From: a virus
Taxonomy: Duplodnaviria; Heunggongvirae; Uroviricota; Caudoviricetes
IMG/VR virus record: IMGVR_UViG_2917881069_000002
Location: 1-8,840 of that record
Direction: 5' to 3' (one strand)
Length of the DNA: 8,840 nucleotides
Within the stretch, counting starts at the first letter, position 1, and the number at the start of each line of letters is the position of its first letter. Below, in pieces: positions 1 to 8,840 of the stretch. Both the position numbers and the translations under genes were made by a program. The notes under the pieces were generated by a model. It searched no databases. It worked only from the letters and a program-made list of their open reading frames with translations, and was not told where the DNA came from.

Positions 1-1038
1 TTAACGCTTATCCGCTACCAGTTTGAGCGCATGTTCCAGCACGTTAATGTCAGCGCCCGCTTTATGGGCATTTTCACTTAAATACCGCCGCCACTGCCGC
101 GCACCAGGAATCCCCTGGAACAGCCCCAGCATATGCCGGGTGATATGACCGAGATACGTCCCCTGGCTGAGTTCACGCTCAATGTACGGATACATAGCTC
201 GTACCACCGCCACCGGATCGGCATCGGTATCCGAGGAACCAAATATCTCTCGATCCACTGCCGCCAGAATGCCTGGGTTTTGATACGCTTCACGCCCGAC
301 CATCACGCCATCCATATGTTGCAGGTGTGCTTTAGCCTCTTCCAGCGACTTGATACCACCGTTAATTGACATAGCCAGATGCGGGAAATCACGCTTCAGT
401 TGATAGACGCGCGGGTAATCGAGCGGCGGGATCTCACGGTTTTCTTTTGGGCTTAAACCGGAGAGCCAGGCTTTACGCGCGTGGATGATAAACATCTCGC
501 ATTCGCCTTTGCCGGAAACGGTGTCGATAAAATCACAGAGAAATTCATAGCTGTCCTGGTCGTCAATGCCAATACGCGTTTTCACCGTCACTGGAATCGA
601 CACTACATCGCGCATCGCTTTTACGCAGTCAGCCACCAGTTGCGCATTCCCCATCAGGCACGCGCCAAACATGCCGTTCTGTACCCGGTCTGACGGGCAG
701 CCGACATTCAGGTTGATCTCATCATATCCGCGCGCTTCTGCCAGCTTCGCGCACTGCGCCAGCGCCGCCGGATCGCTACCGCCCAACTGTAACGCCACCG
801 GATGCTCTTCTTCACTGTATGCCAGGTAATCACCTTTACCGTGAATAATCGCCCCTGTGGTCACCATTTCGGTATAGAGCAACGTATTACGGGAGAGCAG
901 ACGCAGGAAATAACGGCAGTGTCTGTCCGTCCAGTCGAGCATAGGAGCAATGCTAAACCGAGAATTCCAGTAAACACCAGTTTTTTCAGGCATCACGCTG
1001 GTTTGATTAATTTTTTGTGTTTCATGATTATCGTGCAT
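1..1038 (-). CDS. dusA: tRNA-dihydrouridine synthase A (DusA), complete, 345 codons
   Basis: Minus-strand ORF with TAA stop at 1-3 and ATG at 1036-1038. Translation ([44 protein letters not shown] ... [21 protein letters not shown] ... ending ALKLVADKR) is recognisably enterobacterial DusA. No strong SD before the ATG at 1038; an in-frame ATG 45 nt downstream (MPEKTG...) is an alternative start. Confidence 0.95.
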
Positions 1039-1126: not shown

Positions 1127-2224
1127 ATGGCGTACTATAACATAGAGAAACGACTAAAATCCGATGGCACACCACGCTATCGCTGTAATGTGATTATCAA
1201 AGAAAAAGGGGTTATCACTTACAGGGAAAGCAAAACATTCCCTAAACATGCTCATGCCAAAACATGGGGCACACAGAAAGTGATGGAATTAGATCTACAT
1301 GGCATTCCATCATCAAATGCTGTTGACGGGCTTACAGTCCGTGACTTACTACGCAAATATTTAAATGACCCAAATGCCGGAGGTAAAGCAGGCCGTACTA
1401 AAAGATATGTGCTGGAACTACTTATGGATAGTGACATTTCTGCGATCAGACTATCTGAATTAACAGAAAATGACGTAATAGAACATTGCAGGTTGAGAAA
1501 CAACGCCGGTGCAGGTCCAGCTACTGTTAGCCACGATGTTAGTTATCTTGGCAGTGTTCTGGATGCAGCCAAACCTGTATACGGAATTAATTACACATCA
1601 AACCCAGCAAAAGCCGCTCGTCCATATCTACTTAAACTTGGTTTAATTGGTAAATCAAATCGTCGTAATCGTAGACCAGCATCTGATGAACTAGACATGC
1701 TCATTGAAGGCCTTCAACAACGATCTACTCATAAATGCTCAAAAATTCCGTTCGTTGATATCCTCAAATTTTCTGTGTGGTCCTGTATGCGAATCGGAGA
1801 AGTATGCCGGTTACGATGGGAAGATCTCGACCAGGAACAAAAATCTATACTAGTAAGAGACAGGAAAGATCCACGTAAAAAGGAAGGTAACCATATGAAA
1901 GTGGCCTTGCTTGGGGAAGCCTGGGATATCGTCCAACGACAACCCAAAAAATCTGAATTCATTTTTCCATACAACAGCACTTCTGTTACCGCAGGATTTC
2001 AGAGGGTAAGAAGCAAATTAGGTATTAAAGATCTGCGATACCATGATTTGCGTAGAGAAGGGGCAAGTCGCTTATTTGAGGCTGGTTTTAGTATTGAGGA
2101 AGTCGCCCAGGTTACAGGGCATCGTTCATTAAACGTGCTATGGCAGGTATATACCGAACTGTATCCAAAATCTTTACATAATCGTTTTGAAGAACTCCAA
2201 AGGAGCAGAAATAAGACCTCTTGA
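1127..2224 (+). CDS. int: Phage tyrosine integrase (site-specific recombinase), dusA-associated type, 365 codons
   Basis: ATG at 1127 preceded by GAGG (1116-1119, 7-nt spacer). C-terminal catalytic region carries tyrosine-recombinase signature residues: Arg in CMRIGEVCRLRWEDL, H-x-x-R in YHDLRREGASRL, His in TGHRS and Tyr in LWQVYTELY. Divergent and 88 bp from dusA; lower GC than dusA. Confidence 0.92.
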   Translation: MAYYNIEKRLKSDGTPRYRCNVIIKEKGVITYRESKTFPKHAHAKTWGTQKVMELDLHGIPSSNAVDGLTVRDLLRKYLNDPNAGGKAGRTKRYVLELLMDSDISAIRLSELTENDVIEHCRLRNNAGAGPATVSHDVSYLGSVLDAAKPVYGINYTSNPAKAARPYLLKLGLIGKSNRRNRRPASDELDMLIEGLQQRSTHKCSKIPFVDILKFSVWSCMRIGEVCRLRWEDLDQEQKSILVRDRKDPRKKEGNHMKVALLGEAWDIVQRQPKKSEFIFPYNSTSVTAGFQRVRSKLGIKDLRYHDLRREGASRLFEAGFSIEEVAQVTGHRSLNVLWQVYTELYPKSLHNRFEELQRSRNKTS

Positions 2225-2285: not shown

Positions 2286-2534
2286 ATGCGTATTGAGATC
2301 TGCATAGCCAAAGAGAAAATGACTAAAATGCCAAACGGTGCTGTGGATGCGTTAAAGGAAGAATTAACTCGACGCATCAGTAAGCGTTATGACGATGTAG
2401 AGGTGATCGTAAAAGCCACCAGCAACGATGGCCTTTCTGTTACGCGCACCGCCGATAAAGATTCAGCTAAAACTTTTGTTCAGGAAACTCTGAAAGATAC
2501 CTGGGAGTCTGCTGACGAGTGGTTTGTTCATTAA
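2286..2534 (+). CDS. dinI: DinI-family (DNA-damage-inducible protein I-like) protein, 82 aa, prophage-encoded
   Basis: Translation [31 protein letters not shown] ... [10 protein letters not shown] ... [17 protein letters not shown] follows the E. coli DinI pattern as I recall it (MRIE..IAK...GA.DAL..EL.RRI...LSV...QETWESADDWFV; recalled, not verified). Good RBS and tandem LexA boxes immediately upstream. Confidence 0.88.
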
Positions 2535-2644: not shown

Positions 2645-2932
2645 TTAACGGATAAACAGCCAGACCAGCAGACACGCCACCACCGGCACAGCAAAATCCA
2701 TCAGACTTGCCATATCCCACACGCGCGGATCAAAACCACCCCACCACGGCATATTCATACGCTTGCCATGCCCGAACATTTCAATCCAGCGATATTCTGC
2801 CTGGGTATGTTCACGCGCAATGAAGAACGTACAACCGGCTATCGCTCCGTAAGCCCAGTTCCCGGTAAAAAGACCAACCAGTACCTGCGCAGCCACAGCA
2901 CAAAGTGCATGAAGGAAAGGTGTTATATCCAT
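2645..2932 (-). CDS. Small integral membrane protein (95 aa, 2-3 predicted TM helices), function unknown; candidate moron / superinfection-exclusion-type protein
   Basis: ATG at 2930-2932 preceded by AGGAGGAG (complement of 2934-2941), 10 bp after the stop of the upstream 227-aa gene. Hydrophobic segments FLHALCAVAAQVLVGLFTG, AYGAIAGCTFFIA and LMDFAVPVVACLLVWLFI. The opposing plus-strand 158-aa ORF (2618-3094) is His/Arg/Cys-rich junk with no RBS. Confidence 0.65.
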   Translation of the reverse strand: MDITPFLHALCAVAAQVLVGLFTGNWAYGAIAGCTFFIAREHTQAEYRWIEMFGHGKRMNMPWWGGFDPRVWDMASLMDFAVPVVACLLVWLFIR

Positions 2933-2942
2933 TACTCCTCCT

Positions 2943-3626
2943 TTATCCGATATCGCTTCGGGAAGTTGATAACAGCTTTAATTCTGACTCAAGTTCATCA
3001 ACTCTTTCTGTCAGTTTCTGGATATGGTGAATCAGTGGAACAACCAGACGTTCGTACATCACACCTTCGGCAACAAGGCCATTGCTGGAAATAGCTTCCG
3101 GTGCATCATCTTCGTTAGCTGGTCGCCAGTGTACAAACTGAGGGGCAATTTCTCCTACTTCCTCGGCAATCAATCCGTAGAATCCCCAGTCACGCCTGTC
3201 ATTTTCGCATTGCGACCTGTACCACACAGGGCGCATCTTGAAAATGAGATCGGCGTGCTCTGAATCTATCGTCTCTACTGAATGTTTATAGCGGATAGAC
3301 GATGTTGACCGCAGCACAGACGAAATTGCGGGGTCAGGATTAAGATAAAGGTTTGCCGCCGCTGTAGTCGTGCCCAATCCCCACAAATAAAACGCTTCAC
3401 GACCAGTCAGCGGGTAAAAATCTCCACCATAACGACCACTTTCCAGATCGTTCACTTCCACTTTGTTTTTCAGCTTATTATCAACTTCAGTTTTTGTGTA
3501 TCTGGAGCTGATATCCTGCTTTGCACTGGTCATCTCAGTCTGAAGCGTTGATACTTTTCCGTTAATTGAGGAAATATCTCCCTTTAGCTTGGTGATATCT
3601 CCTGGAATTACTGTCGATATAGCCAT
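2943..3626 (-). CDS. Tail-fibre-like protein: N-terminal coiled-coil plus C-terminal intramolecular chaperone (Peptidase S74 / endosialidase-chaperone type) domain, 227 aa
   Basis: ATG at 3624-3626 preceded by GGGAGA (TGA-GGGAGATAA-ATG). C-terminal half carries S74-type motifs: S109-S-I-R-Y-K114 (S-x-x-R-x-K, candidate autocleavage Ser/Lys dyad), MRPVWY, GLIAEEVGEIAPQFV, and a terminal helix PLIHHIQKLTERVDELESELKLL. N-terminal ITKLKGDISSINGKVSTLQTEMTSAKQDISSRYTKTEVDNKLKNKVEVNDL is heptad-like. Confidence 0.8.
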   Translation of the reverse strand: MAISTVIPGDITKLKGDISSINGKVSTLQTEMTSAKQDISSRYTKTEVDNKLKNKVEVNDLESGRYGGDFYPLTGREAFYLWGLGTTTAAANLYLNPDPAISSVLRSTSSIRYKHSVETIDSEHADLIFKMRPVWYRSQCENDRRDWGFYGLIAEEVGEIAPQFVHWRPANEDDAPEAISSNGLVAEGVMYERLVVPLIHHIQKLTERVDELESELKLLSTSRSDIG

Positions 3627-3635
3627 TTATCTCCC

Positions 3636-3917
3636 TCACATCCAGCCACGAAGTTGATGTTCAACTACAACCGCGTATTCATCGAATAATGACGATATTT
3701 GCGTATCATTAATGATGCGCACGTTTACAAAATATCCGTCTTCCTTAACACATACCGGATCGCCATCTTCAGTAAGTTCTCCGGTTTCTTTGTACACGTT
3801 ACCTATCACGTCAATGAGAATATCATCCTGCATCGACTCGTCATCATAATAGCCGATACTCTCCATAAAGGCCGAAAAGTCGGCTCTGTCGGCAAATTTG
3901 AGTGTTAAATCTTTCAT
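3636..3917 (-). CDS. Highly acidic 93-aa protein of unknown function, translationally coupled to the side tail fibre gene
   Basis: ATG at 3915-3917 overlaps the fibre stop (ATGA) and is preceded by GGGGAGAG inside the fibre 3' end. About 28% Asp+Glu with very few basic residues; no signal peptide or TM segment. Does not resemble lambda Tfa-type assembly proteins by eye. Confidence 0.65.
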   Translation of the reverse strand: MKDLTLKFADRADFSAFMESIGYYDDESMQDDILIDVIGNVYKETGELTEDGDPVCVKEDGYFVNVRIINDTQISSLFDEYAVVVEHQLRGWM

Positions 3918-6289
3918 TTAATACTCTCCCCGATTTGCGCATCAGTTAATTCTTTATGCCATATTCTGAAATTTCTAATATGACCGAATAAGTGACGTTC
4001 ACCCGTTGAAGTTTGCCCACCAAAACGAATGCTTGTATTCTTAGTTACATATCTCCACGCGGTTTTTTTAGGAACACTAGGAGGAATATCACCATTCAAA
4101 ACAATATGAACACCATAATCTTTAGTAATTCTAAATCCAGCAACGAACTTTCTCTCTTTCGTTACCAGGTAACTATTAACGCGTCCAGCATCTGCACCAA
4201 CATCAATATAAGGGCTACCAGTATTTGCGGCAGTACCGCCACGGCAACCAAAAATAACGGCCTGGCCAGTTGGCACACCGGAAAAATCCATTATACGTGG
4301 TGCTGCATTAGGAGGAAGTTCCCATTCCCAATTTCGATGAACTTCGGCTAAAACTGTAATAGGTGCGTCATACATATTATTCTTAACAGGAATGTTAACC
4401 AAATCACTAGCGCGGGTAGCTGGTACGTCGTTAGTTATGATTAATGATGTTGCATGAGAACATTTCTCTACCTGAGCGGTTGCCGCCTTTATGTAATTTC
4501 CTGCGACCAATTCGCCGCCACTTTTAGCAAGCATTTCAGTACGAGCATAAACGCTCATATCTTCGGTGGCTTTAAATGTCGATTGGAAAAAATACCATCC
4601 ACTAGCAGGATCATAATCAACGCGACTAGACAAAACATCACTAACTAGTTTAGCGGTATCAAGATCCAACATAGCATCAGCAATAAATGTGTTTCCGTTC
4701 CCGTCATCATTTAATTTTGAAATACGATGGCGAGCGCGACAACCAGCCCCCTTAACACGAATAGATATAGTAACATATTCACCACCAACAACTGGAATCA
4801 CACGGGATGTCCCAGTAGAAATCAACGTAACTGGCCCAGTGTCGGATGATTCTTTATAAGTGAATGTTGCTTGAGTAAAACCAAATTCATCAATAGAGTT
4901 TTCACTAACAGATAAACGGTTTGTATTTCTGTTCCAGTTCGCTGGTGAGTTACTATTAATAAAGTTATTAGTCGTAGTACCTTCAATCAACAAACCATTT
5001 TTTTCGAAGCGTGGTTCGTCAATTGCAGCCTCCGTCAGTACACCAGATTTGTTAATGTAGGTTGCTTTCGATGCGCGTTTAAACTTTACAACCTTATCGC
5101 CAGGCATTGTTATTTCATCATCACCAATAACAATCTTTTTATATGATGGCGAAAAGCCCGTAATCATATCCAGTGAATCGTTAAACGGTATCCACACATC
5201 GGGAAGCGGCTGCAAAACTTGTTTATACGGCTCCGCAGCCTGGCTTGCATACTCTCTGGCTGCGTCTTCACTTGCTTTTGCAGCCGTCTGGCTTGCAGCG
5301 GATGCTTTCGCCGAGTTAGCCGCCGCAGTCTCGCTCGCCTTTGCGTTGGTTTCACTGGTTTTTGCAGCTTTTTGACTGTTGGCTGATGCAGTGGCAGAAG
5401 AAGCCGCCGCACTTGCAGAACCAGCTGCGGCACTCTCGCTTTGGGCTGCTGCATCCTGACTGTTTTTCGCCGCAGTTTCGCTGGCTTTGGCATTCGTTTC
5501 GCTGGTCTTCGCTGCCGTCTGGCTGGACTTTGCGTTAGTTTCACTCGTCTTCGCAGCTTTCTGGCTGTTAGCCGCAGCAGTTGCTGATCCAGCTGCTGAA
5601 GTCGCAGAACCGGCTGCAGCACTCTCGCTTTCGGCTGCTGCAGCCTGACTGCTTTTCGCCGCAGTTTCACTGGTTTTGGCATTCGTTTCGCTTGTTTTCG
5701 CTGCCGTCTGGCTGGACTTTGCGTTAGTTTCGCTCGTCTTTGCGGCTGTCTCGCTGTTTTTCGCATTGGTTTCTGATTTTTTGGCTGCTGTCGCGGAGTT
5801 TGCCGATGCAGTCTGTGAGGCCGCTGCCGCCTGTGCGCTGTTAGCTGCATTCGTTTCTGAGGTTTTCGCCGCGTTCTTCGATGATGCCGCTGCAGTTTCG
5901 GATTTCTTTGCCGCCGCTGCGCTCTGAGAGGCGGCTTCGGCGTTGCGTGCCGCTTCTTCCACCATTTCCTCAAAACGACGCAATGCCTCCGGCATGACGT
6001 CCTCTTCCGTCATGGCACCGAGAAAATCATTCAGCGTACCTGGTCTGGAACCTTCATAGACGGTAATGGTCCCGGCATGTGAAGGCGGAAAACCTTCAAC
6101 CAGCAGGGTGACGCTGTACTGGCCATACTCAACATCCATACTGTAACGCCCGGCTTCATCCGGATTTTCAGATGCCACCGTGTTCACCAGTACCGTGGTG
6201 CTGTTACGCTTTGCCTTCAGTTGAATAGTGCAGTTCTGTATTGGTTTTCCCGCACCATCTTTCAGCACACCTGAAATCTGTACTGCCAT
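3914..6289 (-). CDS. stf: Side tail fibre protein (lambda Stf-like N-terminal domain, Ala/Ser/Thr-rich repeat shaft, distinct C-terminal jelly-roll/LamG-like putative receptor-binding domain)
   Basis: Start taken as ATG 6287-6289 (GGAG 5 nt upstream); the track start at 6295 is a GTG inside the SD. N-terminus MAVQISGVLKDGAGKPIQNCTIQLKAKRNSTTV ... EAGRYSMDVEYGQYSV ... GFPPSHAGTITVYE matches the lambda Stf N-terminal domain as I recall it. C-terminal ~400 aa are AT-rich DNA, starting EPRFEKNGLLIEGTTTNNF and ending RFGGQTSTGERHLFGHIRNFRIWHKELTDAQIGESIK. Confidence 0.9.
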   Translation of the reverse strand: MAVQISGVLKDGAGKPIQNCTIQLKAKRNSTTVLVNTVASENPDEAGRYSMDVEYGQYSVTLLVEGFPPSHAGTITVYEGSRPGTLNDFLGAMTEEDVMPEALRRFEEMVEEAARNAEAASQSAAAAKKSETAAASSKNAAKTSETNAANSAQAAAASQTASANSATAAKKSETNAKNSETAAKTSETNAKSSQTAAKTSETNAKTSETAAKSSQAAAAESESAAAGSATSAAGSATAAANSQKAAKTSETNAKSSQTAAKTSETNAKASETAAKNSQDAAAQSESAAAGSASAAASSATASANSQKAAKTSETNAKASETAAANSAKASAASQTAAKASEDAAREYASQAAEPYKQVLQPLPDVWIPFNDSLDMITGFSPSYKKIVIGDDEITMPGDKVVKFKRASKATYINKSGVLTEAAIDEPRFEKNGLLIEGTTTNNFINSNSPANWNRNTNRLSVSENSIDEFGFTQATFTYKESSDTGPVTLISTGTSRVIPVVGGEYVTISIRVKGAGCRARHRISKLNDDGNGNTFIADAMLDLDTAKLVSDVLSSRVDYDPASGWYFFQSTFKATEDMSVYARTEMLAKSGGELVAGNYIKAATAQVEKCSHATSLIITNDVPATRASDLVNIPVKNNMYDAPITVLAEVHRNWEWELPPNAAPRIMDFSGVPTGQAVIFGCRGGTAANTGSPYIDVGADAGRVNSYLVTKERKFVAGFRITKDYGVHIVLNGDIPPSVPKKTAWRYVTKNTSIRFGGQTSTGERHLFGHIRNFRIWHKELTDAQIGESIK
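5341..5760 (-). repeat. In-frame tandem duplication, period 189 bp (63 aa), about 2.2 copies, containing 42-bp (14-aa AAKTSETNAKSSQT-like) sub-repeats, within the stf shaft
   Basis: Copy at about 5425-5556 is near-identical to 5614-5745 (offset 189 bp); unit starts at about 5341, 5530 and 5719 (partial). Encodes the repeated block AAKTSETNAK(S/A)S(Q/E)TAAK..SESAAAGSA...ANSQK. Confidence 0.75.
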
Positions 6290-6300
6290 ACTCACTCCAC

Positions 6301-6328
6301 AAATAAAAAAGGCGCCATTTCCGGCGCC
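6301..6328 (-). terminator. Rho-independent terminator between J and stf
   Basis: Minus strand reads GGCGCC-GGAAAT-GGCGCC (6-bp all-GC stem, 6-nt loop; 6328-6311) followed by TTTTTTATTT (6310-6301). It sits 22 nt after the J stop, and its T-tract abuts the stf SD. Confidence 0.6.
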
Positions 6329-6349
6329 CGTATTGGGGTTATAAATATT

Positions 6350-8107
6350 TCAACGGATACTGATACCGGAAGCAGCTTTTTTGGTCACAATCACTGTACA
6401 GTCTGTGATGTTACCTGCGCCCTGATTGCCTTTCTGGAAAATCTTAAACTCCAGAGTGACGCTACCACCACCACTCGGCATATCAATAACCGCACTGTAA
6501 CTACCGGGAATGGCTCCTTTAGTTTCTCTGGTTGCGATTAATACGCCGTTTTTGCGAACTTCAAAACCATAACCCGTGTATCGCGTACCTCCCGGGTTAT
6601 TACCGCTCCCCGGATCGTCATACGCCACACCATTAAAAATAATGGGCGGAATAATAATCTGACGGTCAAAGTTATGATCATCGTAAATGGTGACTGTAAC
6701 CGTCCCGCCTGGTGTTTCCGTATCGCCCCACGAGCCAGTTTTTTTCGGGAATGGCTTAGATACAGCTTTGACGAAGTCACCTCTGACCTGAGTTGCCTCC
6801 AGCATTCCCTTAATCGTACAGTTCTCATTTATCGTGACGTTGTTGAGCGTCCCGGAGTTCGCGTTCACGTTACCGCTGATATCCGCATTTTTCGCCGTCA
6901 GCCGCCCGTCCGGTGTCAGGGAAAATGCCGGAGGATTACCGCCGCTGGTAATGGTGGGAGCCGTCAGATACTTCAGGAACACTTCGTTCATGAATATCTG
7001 GTTGCCCTGCGCCACAAACATCGGCGTTTCATTCCCGTTTGCCGGGTCAATAAACGCGATACGGTTAGCGGCAACCAGGAACTGGCTCAGTTTGCCTTCC
7101 TCCGTATCCTCCATACTAAGGCCAAGCCCCGCGACATAATGCCTGCCGTCTTCGGTCTGCTCAATTTTGACGCCCCACATGGCATTCCATTTATCGTTGG
7201 CGTCCTTCCACTCTTTCGAAAACTCCTCCAGTTTGCTGGCGTTATCCTCCGTCAGCTCGACTTTTTCCAGCAGCTCCTTGCCGAGATGGGATTCGGTTAT
7301 CTGGCCTTTGAAAAAATCCAGGTAACCTTCCGCATCATCGCTCGCCCGACCGACAGCCTCCACGAATGTCGATTTGCCGACGGTGTTCACACTGCGAACG
7401 TAAAAATAATAATCATGGCCCGGTTTGATATTGATACTGGCGGCTATCCAGTACAGCGCCGTGCCAAGATAGCGGGCTGTGGTTTCAACCTGCCTGATAT
7501 CCGCAATCCGCTTTTCCGAGAACCAGAACTCAAACTGTACAGTCGGATCATAAACCGCAAGATGCGGCGTGGCGGTTATCTGAAAATAGCCCGGCGTCAG
7601 CTCAATCCGCGATGGCGCTGCCGGTGCGGCAATCCGGAACGATACCGACGCCGGATCGCCCTGCTGCCCCCACGCATTTACCGCCCGGACTGTCAGACTG
7701 TAATTTCCCAGAGCCAGCTGCCTGAAGCGGTATGTGGTTTCCGTCGTCCGGGCCGTGCTGACCAGCCGCTCACTGCCGTCATCCGCTGCCACGGTCAGGC
7801 GAAGCATAAAGCTCACGCCCTTCACCACCTTCGGCGTATCCCAGCGCGCCAGCACCTGGTATTCCCCGCTGTCTGCGGTGACTTCTGCGGTCAGGTGTTG
7901 CACTGCTGGCGGAGTGACACCATTCACCGTGCCGCTCTGGTCGCCGTCAAAGTGCGCCCCGTTATCCACGATGGCTTCTTTCTCCGGCACATGCTGCACG
8001 GCGGTGATGGCATACGTACCGTCATCGTTCTCACGGATACTCACGCAGCGGAACAGGCGCTGGCGCAGCGTCGGCAGCTTCAGCCCCCACCACGCTGTAT
8101 TCTGCAA
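6350..8107 (-). CDS. J: Host-specificity protein J (central tail fibre / tail tip), C-terminal 585-codon segment; its upstream end is a frameshift point, not a true start
   Basis: Long minus-strand ORF ending ...[13 protein letters not shown] with TGA at 6350-6352. Translation from [41 protein letters not shown] onward reads as a lambda gpJ-family protein. The track M at 8107 is a TTG; the real continuation is in the overlapping upstream frame. Confidence 0.85.
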
Positions 8108-8840
8108 CGCCGTCAGGAACCCGTCTCACTTTCACCTTCACGCCGTCGGTGACGGACTGGACCTCCACGCTGACCGGATTCCCCTGTCCGTCAACCAGGC
8201 TTATCAGCGTGGTGCCGGAGGATGGCAGCGTGATTTCACGGTCGAGCGTCAGTGTCCGCGTCTGGCTGTTCACCGCCAGCACGCGCCCGCCGATGCTGAT
8301 ACCCGCATAGTCATCATCACAGATTTCAATGACATCGCCCGGTACATGGCGAAGCCCTTCTGCACCCACGCTGAAGTCCACGGTCTGCGTTTCCAGCAGC
8401 TCCGTTTTAATCAGCCACAGCCCGGCGCGGTGTGCCTGCCCCCGGCTGGTACAGCCAAAGGCATCCATCTTCGTGACGTTACGACCGTAACGGAGAATGG
8501 CCTGCGTATCTTCAACAAGCTCTGTCGCCGTCTCCCAGCCGTTATTCGGGTCAATCCAGTTCACCTCAACGGCATTATGGCGGTCCTTCAGGGCGCTGAA
8601 GCTGTAGCGGAACGGCGCGCCATCATCCGGCATCACCACATTACTGCGGTTATAGGTCCACACCTTATCCGACGGTCGGTCCTGCACGAACGTCAGCGTC
8701 TGCCCGTTCCATACCGGCATACAGCGCATCGCCGAGCAGAAATCACTGAGAACATCCCACGCCTTACGCTGTGTGGTCAGGTAGGCATTACGAGGTGATG
8801 CGCGGCTCCGTGCCACCAAAGCCATCCGGCACCGACTGGT
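8031..8840 (-). CDS. J: Host-specificity protein J, N-proximal segment (5' end beyond the window), terminated by an apparent frameshift
   Basis: Frame is open to the window edge (codons TSRCR precede the track's ATG at 8823-8825). Translation ...[72 protein letters not shown]...[17 protein letters not shown] is J-like. It then degenerates to [19 protein letters not shown] and stops at 8031-8033 while the J-like reading continues in the other frame. Confidence 0.85.

Follow-up and report, generated by a model that had tools for sequence, protein, structure and literature searches.

The gene for a trans-acting fibre chaperone is usually located directly 3′ of the fibre gene, as is the case for T4 gp38, Tfa of Mu and lambda, and gp27 of phage V22 (PMC7289586). 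The prophage analysed here raises the question of what function is served by a small and strongly acidic protein of 93 residues, the gene of which occupies this position behind a side tail fibre gene. An original prediction made from the sequence had taken the protein to be a new fibre-specific chaperone or adaptor standing in place of Tfa, with a DNA-mimic or immunity-like role as the alternative.

The window, i.e. the whole stretch of 8840 nucleotides that was analysed, covers the left end of a lambdoid prophage inserted at dusA in E. coli. It contains dusA (1–1038, minus strand) and genes for a tyrosine integrase (1127–2224, plus strand) and a DinI-like protein (2286–2534, plus strand), whereas the end of the late operon is encoded on the minus strand in the order J (to 6350), fibre, 93-residue ORF, a 227-residue protein and a 95-residue membrane protein. 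In a sister prophage, the last four carry the RefSeq names 'prophage tail fiber N-terminal domain-containing protein', 'hypothetical protein', 'tail fiber domain-containing protein' and 'hypothetical protein'. Integration at the 5′ end of dusA, with a tyrosine integrase gene alongside, is a known arrangement of dusA-targeting prophages, and the sister locus of E. coli CFSAN018748 is organized identically. Between the DinI-like and membrane-protein genes, the sister prophage holds a short fragment annotated in RefSeq as a 'capsid protein' pseudogene (3332–3412, equivalent to approximately 2535–2640 of the window), which points to earlier rearrangement at this end of the prophage. The central tail fibre gene J is broken into two overlapping ORFs (6350–8107 and 8031–8825; split at approximately 8085–8095, minus strand) by a 1 bp insertion in a run of C nucleotides, which reads CAGCCCCCACCACGC here and CAGCCCCCA-CACGC in the sister prophages. 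This reflects either a prophage that is defective for J or an error in sequencing.

The small gene and its protein family

The gene for the acidic protein (3636–3917, minus strand) was delineated from the ORF list, its PHROG profile, an AlphaFold2 model and dN/dS analysis. The fibre stop codon (TGA, 3916–3914) and the start codon of the small ORF (ATG, 3917–3915) share a 4 nt ATGA overlap (3914–3917, minus strand), and the junction reads AAATGAAAG on the minus strand. A Shine–Dalgarno sequence, GGGGAGAG (3924–3931, minus strand), is embedded in the last fibre codons and ends 6 nt upstream of the small-ORF ATG, while a scan of the junction sequence revealed neither a promoter-like nor a terminator-like site between the two genes. 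The prediction of an acidic ORF of 93 residues starting within an ATGA overlap was therefore confirmed, and its translational coupling to the fibre was borne out by the same overlap. On the other hand, the stoichiometric co-expression that had been read into this coupling is not implied by such an overlap, especially given the independent Shine–Dalgarno sequence.

A terminator-like element composed of a GC-rich hairpin and a T-run is found further upstream, between J and the fibre gene (6310–6329, minus strand), and is the only convincing one; the phage 21 record has an annotated terminator at the equivalent place. As a consequence of this hairpin, expression of the fibre, the small gene and the distal fibre may depend on read-through or antitermination.

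The encoded protein (10.6 kDa) contains 13 aspartate and eight glutamate residues versus seven lysine and arginine residues, resulting in a pI of 4.05 and a net charge of approximately −14 at pH 7. Its size of 93 codons is by itself not beyond chance, as there are many spurious ORFs of 80–100 amino acids in the window. The ORF can be considered real because the entire protein is matched by PHROG 1361, a family of unknown function (residues 1–93 against positions 1–92 of a 92-position profile; E = 1.8e-45), because there are hundreds of homologues of the same length (equal-length homologues in 179 records in a phage collection search, and matches to 227 protein clusters of a large protein collection) and because it is under purifying selection, with a dN/dS of 0.22 over 32 distinct alleles and of 0.31 in the phage 21 clade. 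As judged from these sequence features, it is a translated gene and not an untranslated reading frame.

No Pfam or NCBIfam model matches the 93-residue protein, and no relevant Pfam model was matched by any of 30 diverse family members, the window protein included. Likewise, PADLOC models returned no families at E ≤ 0.1, and searches of PDB sequences with the single protein and with a 30-member profile gave no meaningful match. An exhaustive profile search of 1.84 billion representatives retrieved only 87 clusters at E ≤ 0.001, nearly all of them composed of proteins of approximately 85–125 residues; the exceptions are a few TPR and cell-wall-binding repeat proteins with large multi-stretch matches (P0170, P0180 and similar), which were judged to be spurious. 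For ten subfamilies, the cluster names are invariably 'hypothetical protein' or 'prophage protein', and a full-text literature search for 'phrog_1361' returned no paper. Although catalogued and abundant, the family is functionally uncharacterized according to the searchable literature and was passed over when fibres were modelled recently.

The family shares an N-terminal MKDLxLKF strand, the motifs D-x-I-G and G-Y-x-V-N-x-R, and a C-terminal P-x-R-x-W-x motif that is present at the terminus of 34 of 47 full-length cluster representatives. Acidity is also conserved family-wide (median pI 4.33, median net charge −10), and neither a signal peptide nor a transmembrane segment was found in the sequence of the small protein. 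Since a broad alignment of 30 sequences was devoid of any conserved 7-mer, narrower alignments were used for the locus scans described below. AlphaFold2 confidently predicts a small α/β domain (mean pLDDT 81) comprising a first β-strand (2–8), two α-helices (11–20 and 27–32), four β-strands (33–68) and a last α-helix (75–81), with a disordered extreme C-terminus; the C-terminal tail of the window protein, L-R-G-W-M, is conserved despite its predicted disorder. Among the structural matches, the predicted α/β sandwich resembles no Tfa, gp38, gp57A or DNA mimic. The claim that the protein is not a Tfa was upheld: no Caudo_TAP or other Pfam or NCBIfam match was obtained for the 30 members, the protein is half the size of Tfa and its predicted fold is unrelated. 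Indeed, the profile searches and structure prediction that had been proposed as checks revealed no clear homology to Tfa or to any known chaperone family.

The fibre module and its association with the small gene

The 793-residue side tail fibre (3914–6295, minus strand; ORF list and profiles) is composed of a phage_tail_N tail-attachment domain (3–133), an Ala/Ser/Thr-rich repeat shaft extending to residue ~360 and a C-terminal module (361–793). Residues 436–629 of the module (4409–4990, minus strand) match the gene-transfer agent (GTA) head-spike-fibre domain NF048003 (NCBIfam, E = 3e-15), residues ~441–760 (4016–4975, minus strand) form a receptor-binding cassette found to be hypervariable by comparison with sister prophages, and the last 33 residues (…RHLFGHIRNFRIWHKELTDAQIGESIK; 3917–4015, minus strand) are conserved in all lineages examined. 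The fibres that precede homologues of the small gene are homologous over their C-terminal ~430 residues (33–46% identity), with unrelated N-terminal parts. NF048003 was found above its curated cut-off of 36 bits in all nine fibres tested, namely the window fibre and eight further upstream fibres from seven lineages (E = 1e-20 to 3e-10). Homologous fibres have been assigned to O-antigen recognition (PMC8594841, PMC11990801).

The window fibre also matches Rcc01080, the head-spike fibre of RcGTA, which has been structurally solved, binds capsule and has been used as a recombinant binding protein (PMC10218006). While the 325-residue RcGTA fibre ends approximately 40 residues past the matching region, the window fibre runs approximately 150 residues further. 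Given that the RcGTA fibre, which is devoid of this extra C-terminal domain, has no comparable neighbour, the NF048003 domain as such needs no small protein, and the latter may accompany the extra C-terminal domain. The gene next to that of the RcGTA fibre, rcc01081, was considered as a homologue of the small gene and rejected, since it is a capsule-biosynthesis gene (PMC10218006).

Profile searches detected Peptidase_S74 in neither the 793-residue fibre nor the small protein, and Tfa/Caudo_TAP was likewise absent from all protein-sized ORFs that follow the fibre in the window. A Tfa is not to be expected, because the fibre tip is not of the lambda Stf type, a fact that was missed when the locus was initially compared with lambda-type stf and tfa. 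Also overlooked was the nature of the next gene (2943–3626, minus strand; ORF list and profiles), which starts 9 nt after the small ORF with its own Shine–Dalgarno sequence and encodes a second (distal) fibre-like protein of 227 residues equipped with its own chaperone domain: an N-terminal TVIPGDITKLK sequence is followed by a coiled coil and by a C-terminal Peptidase_S74 domain (residues 109–165, E = 6e-6). Only the first fibre is thus left without a known chaperone, as it contains no S74 domain and has no Tfa, while the next gene provides its own S74. The 227-residue protein is minimal, since the expected self-cleavage of S74 near residue 108 would leave a coiled-coil stub with no recognizable binding domain.

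A distal-fibre gene is found 9–12 nt downstream of the small gene in most lineages. Its product is 227, 234 or 346 residues long in E. coli prophages, 245 in tunus, 388 in VogelGryff, 574–576 in IrisVonRoten and L6jm, and 332 or 243 in a Leclercia-type clade, in all cases with S74 at the C-terminus; a 287-residue Leclercia-type variant has Phage_tail_C_2 in place of S74. The N-terminal motif TVIPxDITKLK is common to the enterobacterial distal fibres (lambdoid, Drexlerviridae, Queuovirinae and T5-like) and, from its sequence, looks like a docking peptide. The last operon gene before the prophage end (2645–2932, minus strand; ORF list and PHROG) encodes the 95-residue membrane protein (PHROG 1443, function unknown), which is 92% identical in mEp460 and may serve in lysogenic conversion or exclusion. 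In the phage 21 clade, the PHROG 1443 gene directly follows the small ORF.

The association of the small gene with the fibre module is invariant across phage families and extends into Alphaproteobacteria. The small ORF overlaps the preceding fibre gene by 1 or 4 nt in 79 of 83 E. coli dusA prophage loci (43 with 1 nt and 36 with 4 nt), and junctions with the same 1 or 4 nt overlap were found in 74 of 75 loci of the Leclercia-type clade (Leclercia, Silvania and Atlantibacter), the small proteins of which are only ~29% identical to that of the window, and in 47 of 48 loci of the phage 21/mEp460 clade. The junction is also overlapped in every one of the loci inspected singly, i.e. phage 21, mEp460_4F5, Dhillonvirus 'rolling', the T5-like phages L6jm and IrisVonRoten, Seuratvirus VogelGryff, Warwickvirus tunus and the rV5-like pangalan. 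Overlaps of 1, 4 or 8 nt were seen across the homologues examined, and the lineages displaying the pairing comprise lambdoid, Dhillonvirus, Queuovirinae, Drexlerviridae, T5-like and rV5-like phages, as well as Martelella. In the latter (Rhizobiales, Alphaproteobacteria), a three-gene unit encodes a spike base (NF048002, Rcc01079 family), an NF048003 protein and a small-protein homologue that is 28% identical to the window protein and overlaps by 8 nt. This unit is present in two or three copies per genome, one located between xseA and dnaA and one in a prophage-like tail/lysis region; in M. lutilitoris the xseA–dnaA copy is a stand-alone island, and another lies beside genes for an XkdW/DUF4376 protein and a lysozyme. 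The Martelella units may provide a GTA or a prophage with alternative sets of head spikes or fibres. Several records labelled as Campylobacter or Listeria phages (e.g. MG065676 A116, MG065654 C15 and OR847733 LM 4-11-1) have sequences identical to those of E. coli T5-like or rV5-like phages and are probably mislabelled or contaminant assemblies.

The distal fibre is not part of this fixed association, as the small gene is kept with no distal-fibre gene in the phage 21/mEp460 clade, Dhillonvirus 'rolling', the rV5-like pangalan and the Martelella units. For this reason, the invariant partner of the small protein is the C-terminal module of the first fibre and not the distal fibre.

Comparison of the window with 80 sister prophages revealed identities of 94–97% over the first 440 fibre residues and of 92–96% in the small protein, but of only 33–51% over fibre residues ~441–760, the flanks of this cassette being 92–97% identical. 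The loci can be sorted into eight receptor-binding allele groups that are 28–71% identical to each other, of which five share one and the same small-protein variant. The window allele stands alone in its group and is only 33–39% identical to the other seven. Distal-fibre types are distributed independently of the receptor-binding alleles of the first fibre. A constant block, composed of the last 33 fibre residues, the small ORF and the first 15–20 residues of the distal fibre, is enclosed between two exchangeable cassettes. The region 4016–4975 is a clear recombination cassette, of which the small ORF forms the 3′ constant arm. The small protein is independent of both the receptor-binding allele and the distal fibre, and, since it does not co-vary with the receptor-binding cassette, it must touch the invariant frame of the module if it touches the fibre at all.

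Possible roles of the small protein

The reading that we favour, although we would put it slightly below an even chance, is that the small protein is a dedicated and allele-independent fibre accessory, most likely a trans-acting assembly chaperone or holdase, with the GhsB/NF048003 domain and the C-terminal β-sandwich ('galectin-like' in the homologous Gp22 of IrisVonRoten) as its client. It is preferred because the first fibre has neither Tfa nor S74, whereas the distal fibre brings its own S74. Synteny, the NF048003 partner, the conserved acidity and C-terminal motif, purifying selection and retention in units with no distal fibre are all in its favour, and small acidic α/β proteins encoded beside their client are typical of dedicated secretion chaperones. 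The role of a fibre chaperone or adaptor, as originally predicted, is accordingly retained as the best reading, in view of the fixed synteny with one fibre module in at least seven lineages; it was not upheld as 'fibre-specific' in the sense of Tfa or gp38, because one small protein serves alleles that are only ~30–50% identical.

According to this proposal, coupled translation from the late transcript shared with the fibre would yield a soluble, cytoplasmic and strongly acidic α/β protein of ~10 kDa. This protein would bind the invariant frame of the module, through the conserved 'neck' (fibre residues ~361–440) and/or the last strand rather than the variable sugar-binding surface, and its invariant C-terminal R-x-W tail may take part in binding. 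Binding would help the three chains to fold, to trimerize or to stay soluble, and the small protein would probably leave before or at fibre attachment, thereby filling the role that belongs to Tfa or to the intramolecular S74 domain in other fibre types. We infer that the small protein physically binds the fibre, that it does so at this site, that it acts as a chaperone and that virions do not contain it. Four points weigh against a chaperone: the small protein, unlike chaperones of the Tfa/gp38 type, does not co-vary with the receptor-binding cassette; the RcGTA fibre has no such neighbour; the position between proximal and distal fibre genes equally fits a structural joint; and a homologous fibre is confidently predicted to trimerize on its own, as described in the following.

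T5-like phage IrisVonRoten (Bas32) contains a proximal fibre with a galectin-like C-terminal domain, Gp22, and a T-shaped distal fibre, Gp24 (PMC11990801). Residues 363–796 of the proximal fibre are 46% identical to residues 361–793 of the window fibre. Between the two lies Gp23 (bas32_0023, MZ501075), a homologue of the small protein (92 residues, 37% identity, E = 2e-24), the gene of which overlaps that of the proximal fibre by 4 nt and is annotated in GenBank as 'tail fiber protein'. Identity to the window protein is approximately 37–52% across Gp23 and the phage 21 homologue CPT_21_23. Only Gp22 1–359, Gp22 339–796 and Gp24 are listed in S7 Table of the structural study, Gp23 being neither modelled nor discussed (PMC11990801). 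The homotrimer predicted for Gp22 339–796 with no Gp23 included is of high confidence (pLDDT 95.4, ipTM+pTM 0.94; PMC11990801, S7 Table). The same paper designates the proximal fibre as Gp22 in the figure legend and S7 Table and as Gp23 in the main text, whereas the real Gp23 is the 92-residue small protein.

The main rival, which we nevertheless regard as doubtful, is a structural subunit that stays on the finished fibre, where it would cap the end of the proximal fibre or act there as a hinge. If a distal-fibre gene follows, the small protein would form or stabilize the joint for docking of the TVIPxDITKLK peptide of the distal fibre, as a counterpart of T4 gp35/gp36 in a branched or two-segment fibre. 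The order of the genes for proximal fibre, small protein and distal fibre would then mirror the physical order, as happens with T4 genes 34-35-36-37. The S74-terminated fibre gene that closely follows in most lineages and the constant block of fibre end, small ORF and distal N-terminus between two independently exchanged cassettes are compatible with such a joint, as are the location of Gp23 between Gp22 and Gp24 of IrisVonRoten, for which the published models show no attachment of Gp24 to Gp22, and its GenBank name. However, purifying selection keeps the small gene in the phage 21/mEp460 clade, where a distal fibre is missing, and the gene is likewise retained in the 'rolling', pangalan and Martelella units. 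A joint for a second fibre cannot therefore be its general role, although it may be a cap. In addition, phage AnnaHegner reportedly joins its proximal fibre Gp9 to its distal fibre Gp10 although the two genes are adjacent (PMC11990801). A virion proteome covering the small-protein family was not found, those of rV5 and W70 appearing to carry other fibre alleles or PHROGs. The LtfA/LtfB/LtfC proteins of DT57C were also considered and proved uninformative for comparison, since LtfC is the collar protein and ltfA and ltfB of this phage do not flank a small gene.

A function unrelated to the fibre, such as that of a DNA mimic, an anti-restriction or anti-defence protein or an immunity-like moron carried at a fibre recombination hotspot, is improbable. 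The strong negative charge conserved throughout the family, the small size and the proximity to the prophage end, where morons accumulate, could be taken to point in this direction. Yet the gene is locked by overlap to a single module in virulent and temperate phages of at least six families and in Martelella, a degree of conservation not seen for morons, and it belongs to the late structural operon, in which no separate promoter was detected for it, so that its product would come too late for action at DNA entry; there is also no PADLOC match. Of the DNA-mimic or immunity-like role originally envisaged, only the charge fits, the late fibre-locked gene having neither a PADLOC match nor structural matches to mimics. 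Slightly less probable still is a mask for the receptor site, i.e. a polyanion that transiently covers the sugar- or LPS-binding face in the cell or at lysis, prevents sticking to envelope debris and is displaced by the receptor: an acidic surface could imitate an anionic polysaccharide and the partner module is a glycan binder (RcGTA fibre, PMC10218006; O-antigen, PMC8594841, PMC11990801), but the binding surface is hypervariable, whereas the small protein stays the same with alleles that share only 28–71% identity, and the module is near-neutral rather than basic (median pI 6.4).

Significance and comparison with known systems

Taken as a whole, PHROG 1361 may represent an unrecognized and fold-novel class of fibre accessory, obligatorily paired with GhsB-type lectin modules that have an extra C-terminal β-sandwich, both in the tails of enterobacterial siphoviruses and myoviruses and in alphaproteobacterial spike-base/spike-fibre units. 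By recognizing the invariant frame of the module, it would provide a constant 'socket', as a chaperone or as a hinge, which lets receptor-binding cassettes and distal fibres be swapped by recombination. We consider this broader proposal to be evenly balanced between holding and failing.

Some of the most frequent lateral fibres of E. coli and Salmonella phages contain this module and are assigned to the recognition of O-antigen or glycans. If such fibres need the small protein for their folding or completion, its co-expression would be required when phages or phage-derived delivery particles are retargeted with these domains, and its allele independence implies that a single copy should be sufficient for every cassette of the family, a convenience for engineering. 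The Eligo paper on lambda-STF chimeras mentions no accessory protein for this fibre module. The proposal, if true, would also explain a gap in current fibre models, which skip Gp23 of IrisVonRoten and show no joint between distal and proximal fibre, and would establish a mechanistic link between coliphage fibres and GTA-type head spikes. Should it prove dispensable, the gene would count as one more conserved hypothetical gene. For specialists, its strict pairing, allele independence and link to GTAs are noteworthy rather than paradigm-changing.

Several known systems bear a partial likeness to this one. The Tfa/Caudo_TAP proteins (lambda Tfa, Mu U, P2 G and T4 gp38) are also encoded by a small gene directly downstream of a fibre gene, but are ~175–260 residues long and possess a tip-binding domain that co-varies with the fibre tip, whereas the small protein has 93 residues, displays no such co-variation and has neither a sequence match to them (none of 30 members) nor, among the structural matches of its predicted fold, any similarity to their solved structures. 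T4 gp57A is likewise small, acidic and not allele-specific, and the small protein would, as gp57A does, act in trans and be absent from virions. However, gp57A is a helical protein whose gene lies away from those of its clients. For the small protein, which has no sequence relation to gp57A, a mixed α/β structure is predicted, and its gene overlaps that of a single client.

In Alteromonas phage V22, gp27, described as belonging to no known family and encoded just downstream of the receptor-binding fibre, is essential for fibre function and is not part of the final complex (PMC7289586). It was rejected as a relative, since it is a 21.8 kDa member of the DUF4376 family with another client fibre, as opposed to 10.6 kDa and no Pfam match for the small protein. 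Peptidase_S74 performs the job presumed for the small protein, the C-terminal folding and trimerization of fibres, and occurs in the next gene of the locus; in contrast to the small protein, which is dissimilar to it, S74 is covalently attached and self-cleaving. The hinge proteins gp35 and gp36 of T4 are similarly encoded between proximal and distal fibre genes, but share neither sequence nor size with the small protein, the gene of which also occurs where there is no distal fibre. With the anti-restriction DNA mimics Ocr and ArdA it shares a strongly acidic character, but neither their sequence or fold nor their early or leading-region expression. Whether as a chaperone or as a hinge, the small protein would constitute a new and structurally unrelated variety of an already known sort of phage accessory protein, distinguished by an unusually broad and strict association with the GhsB module.
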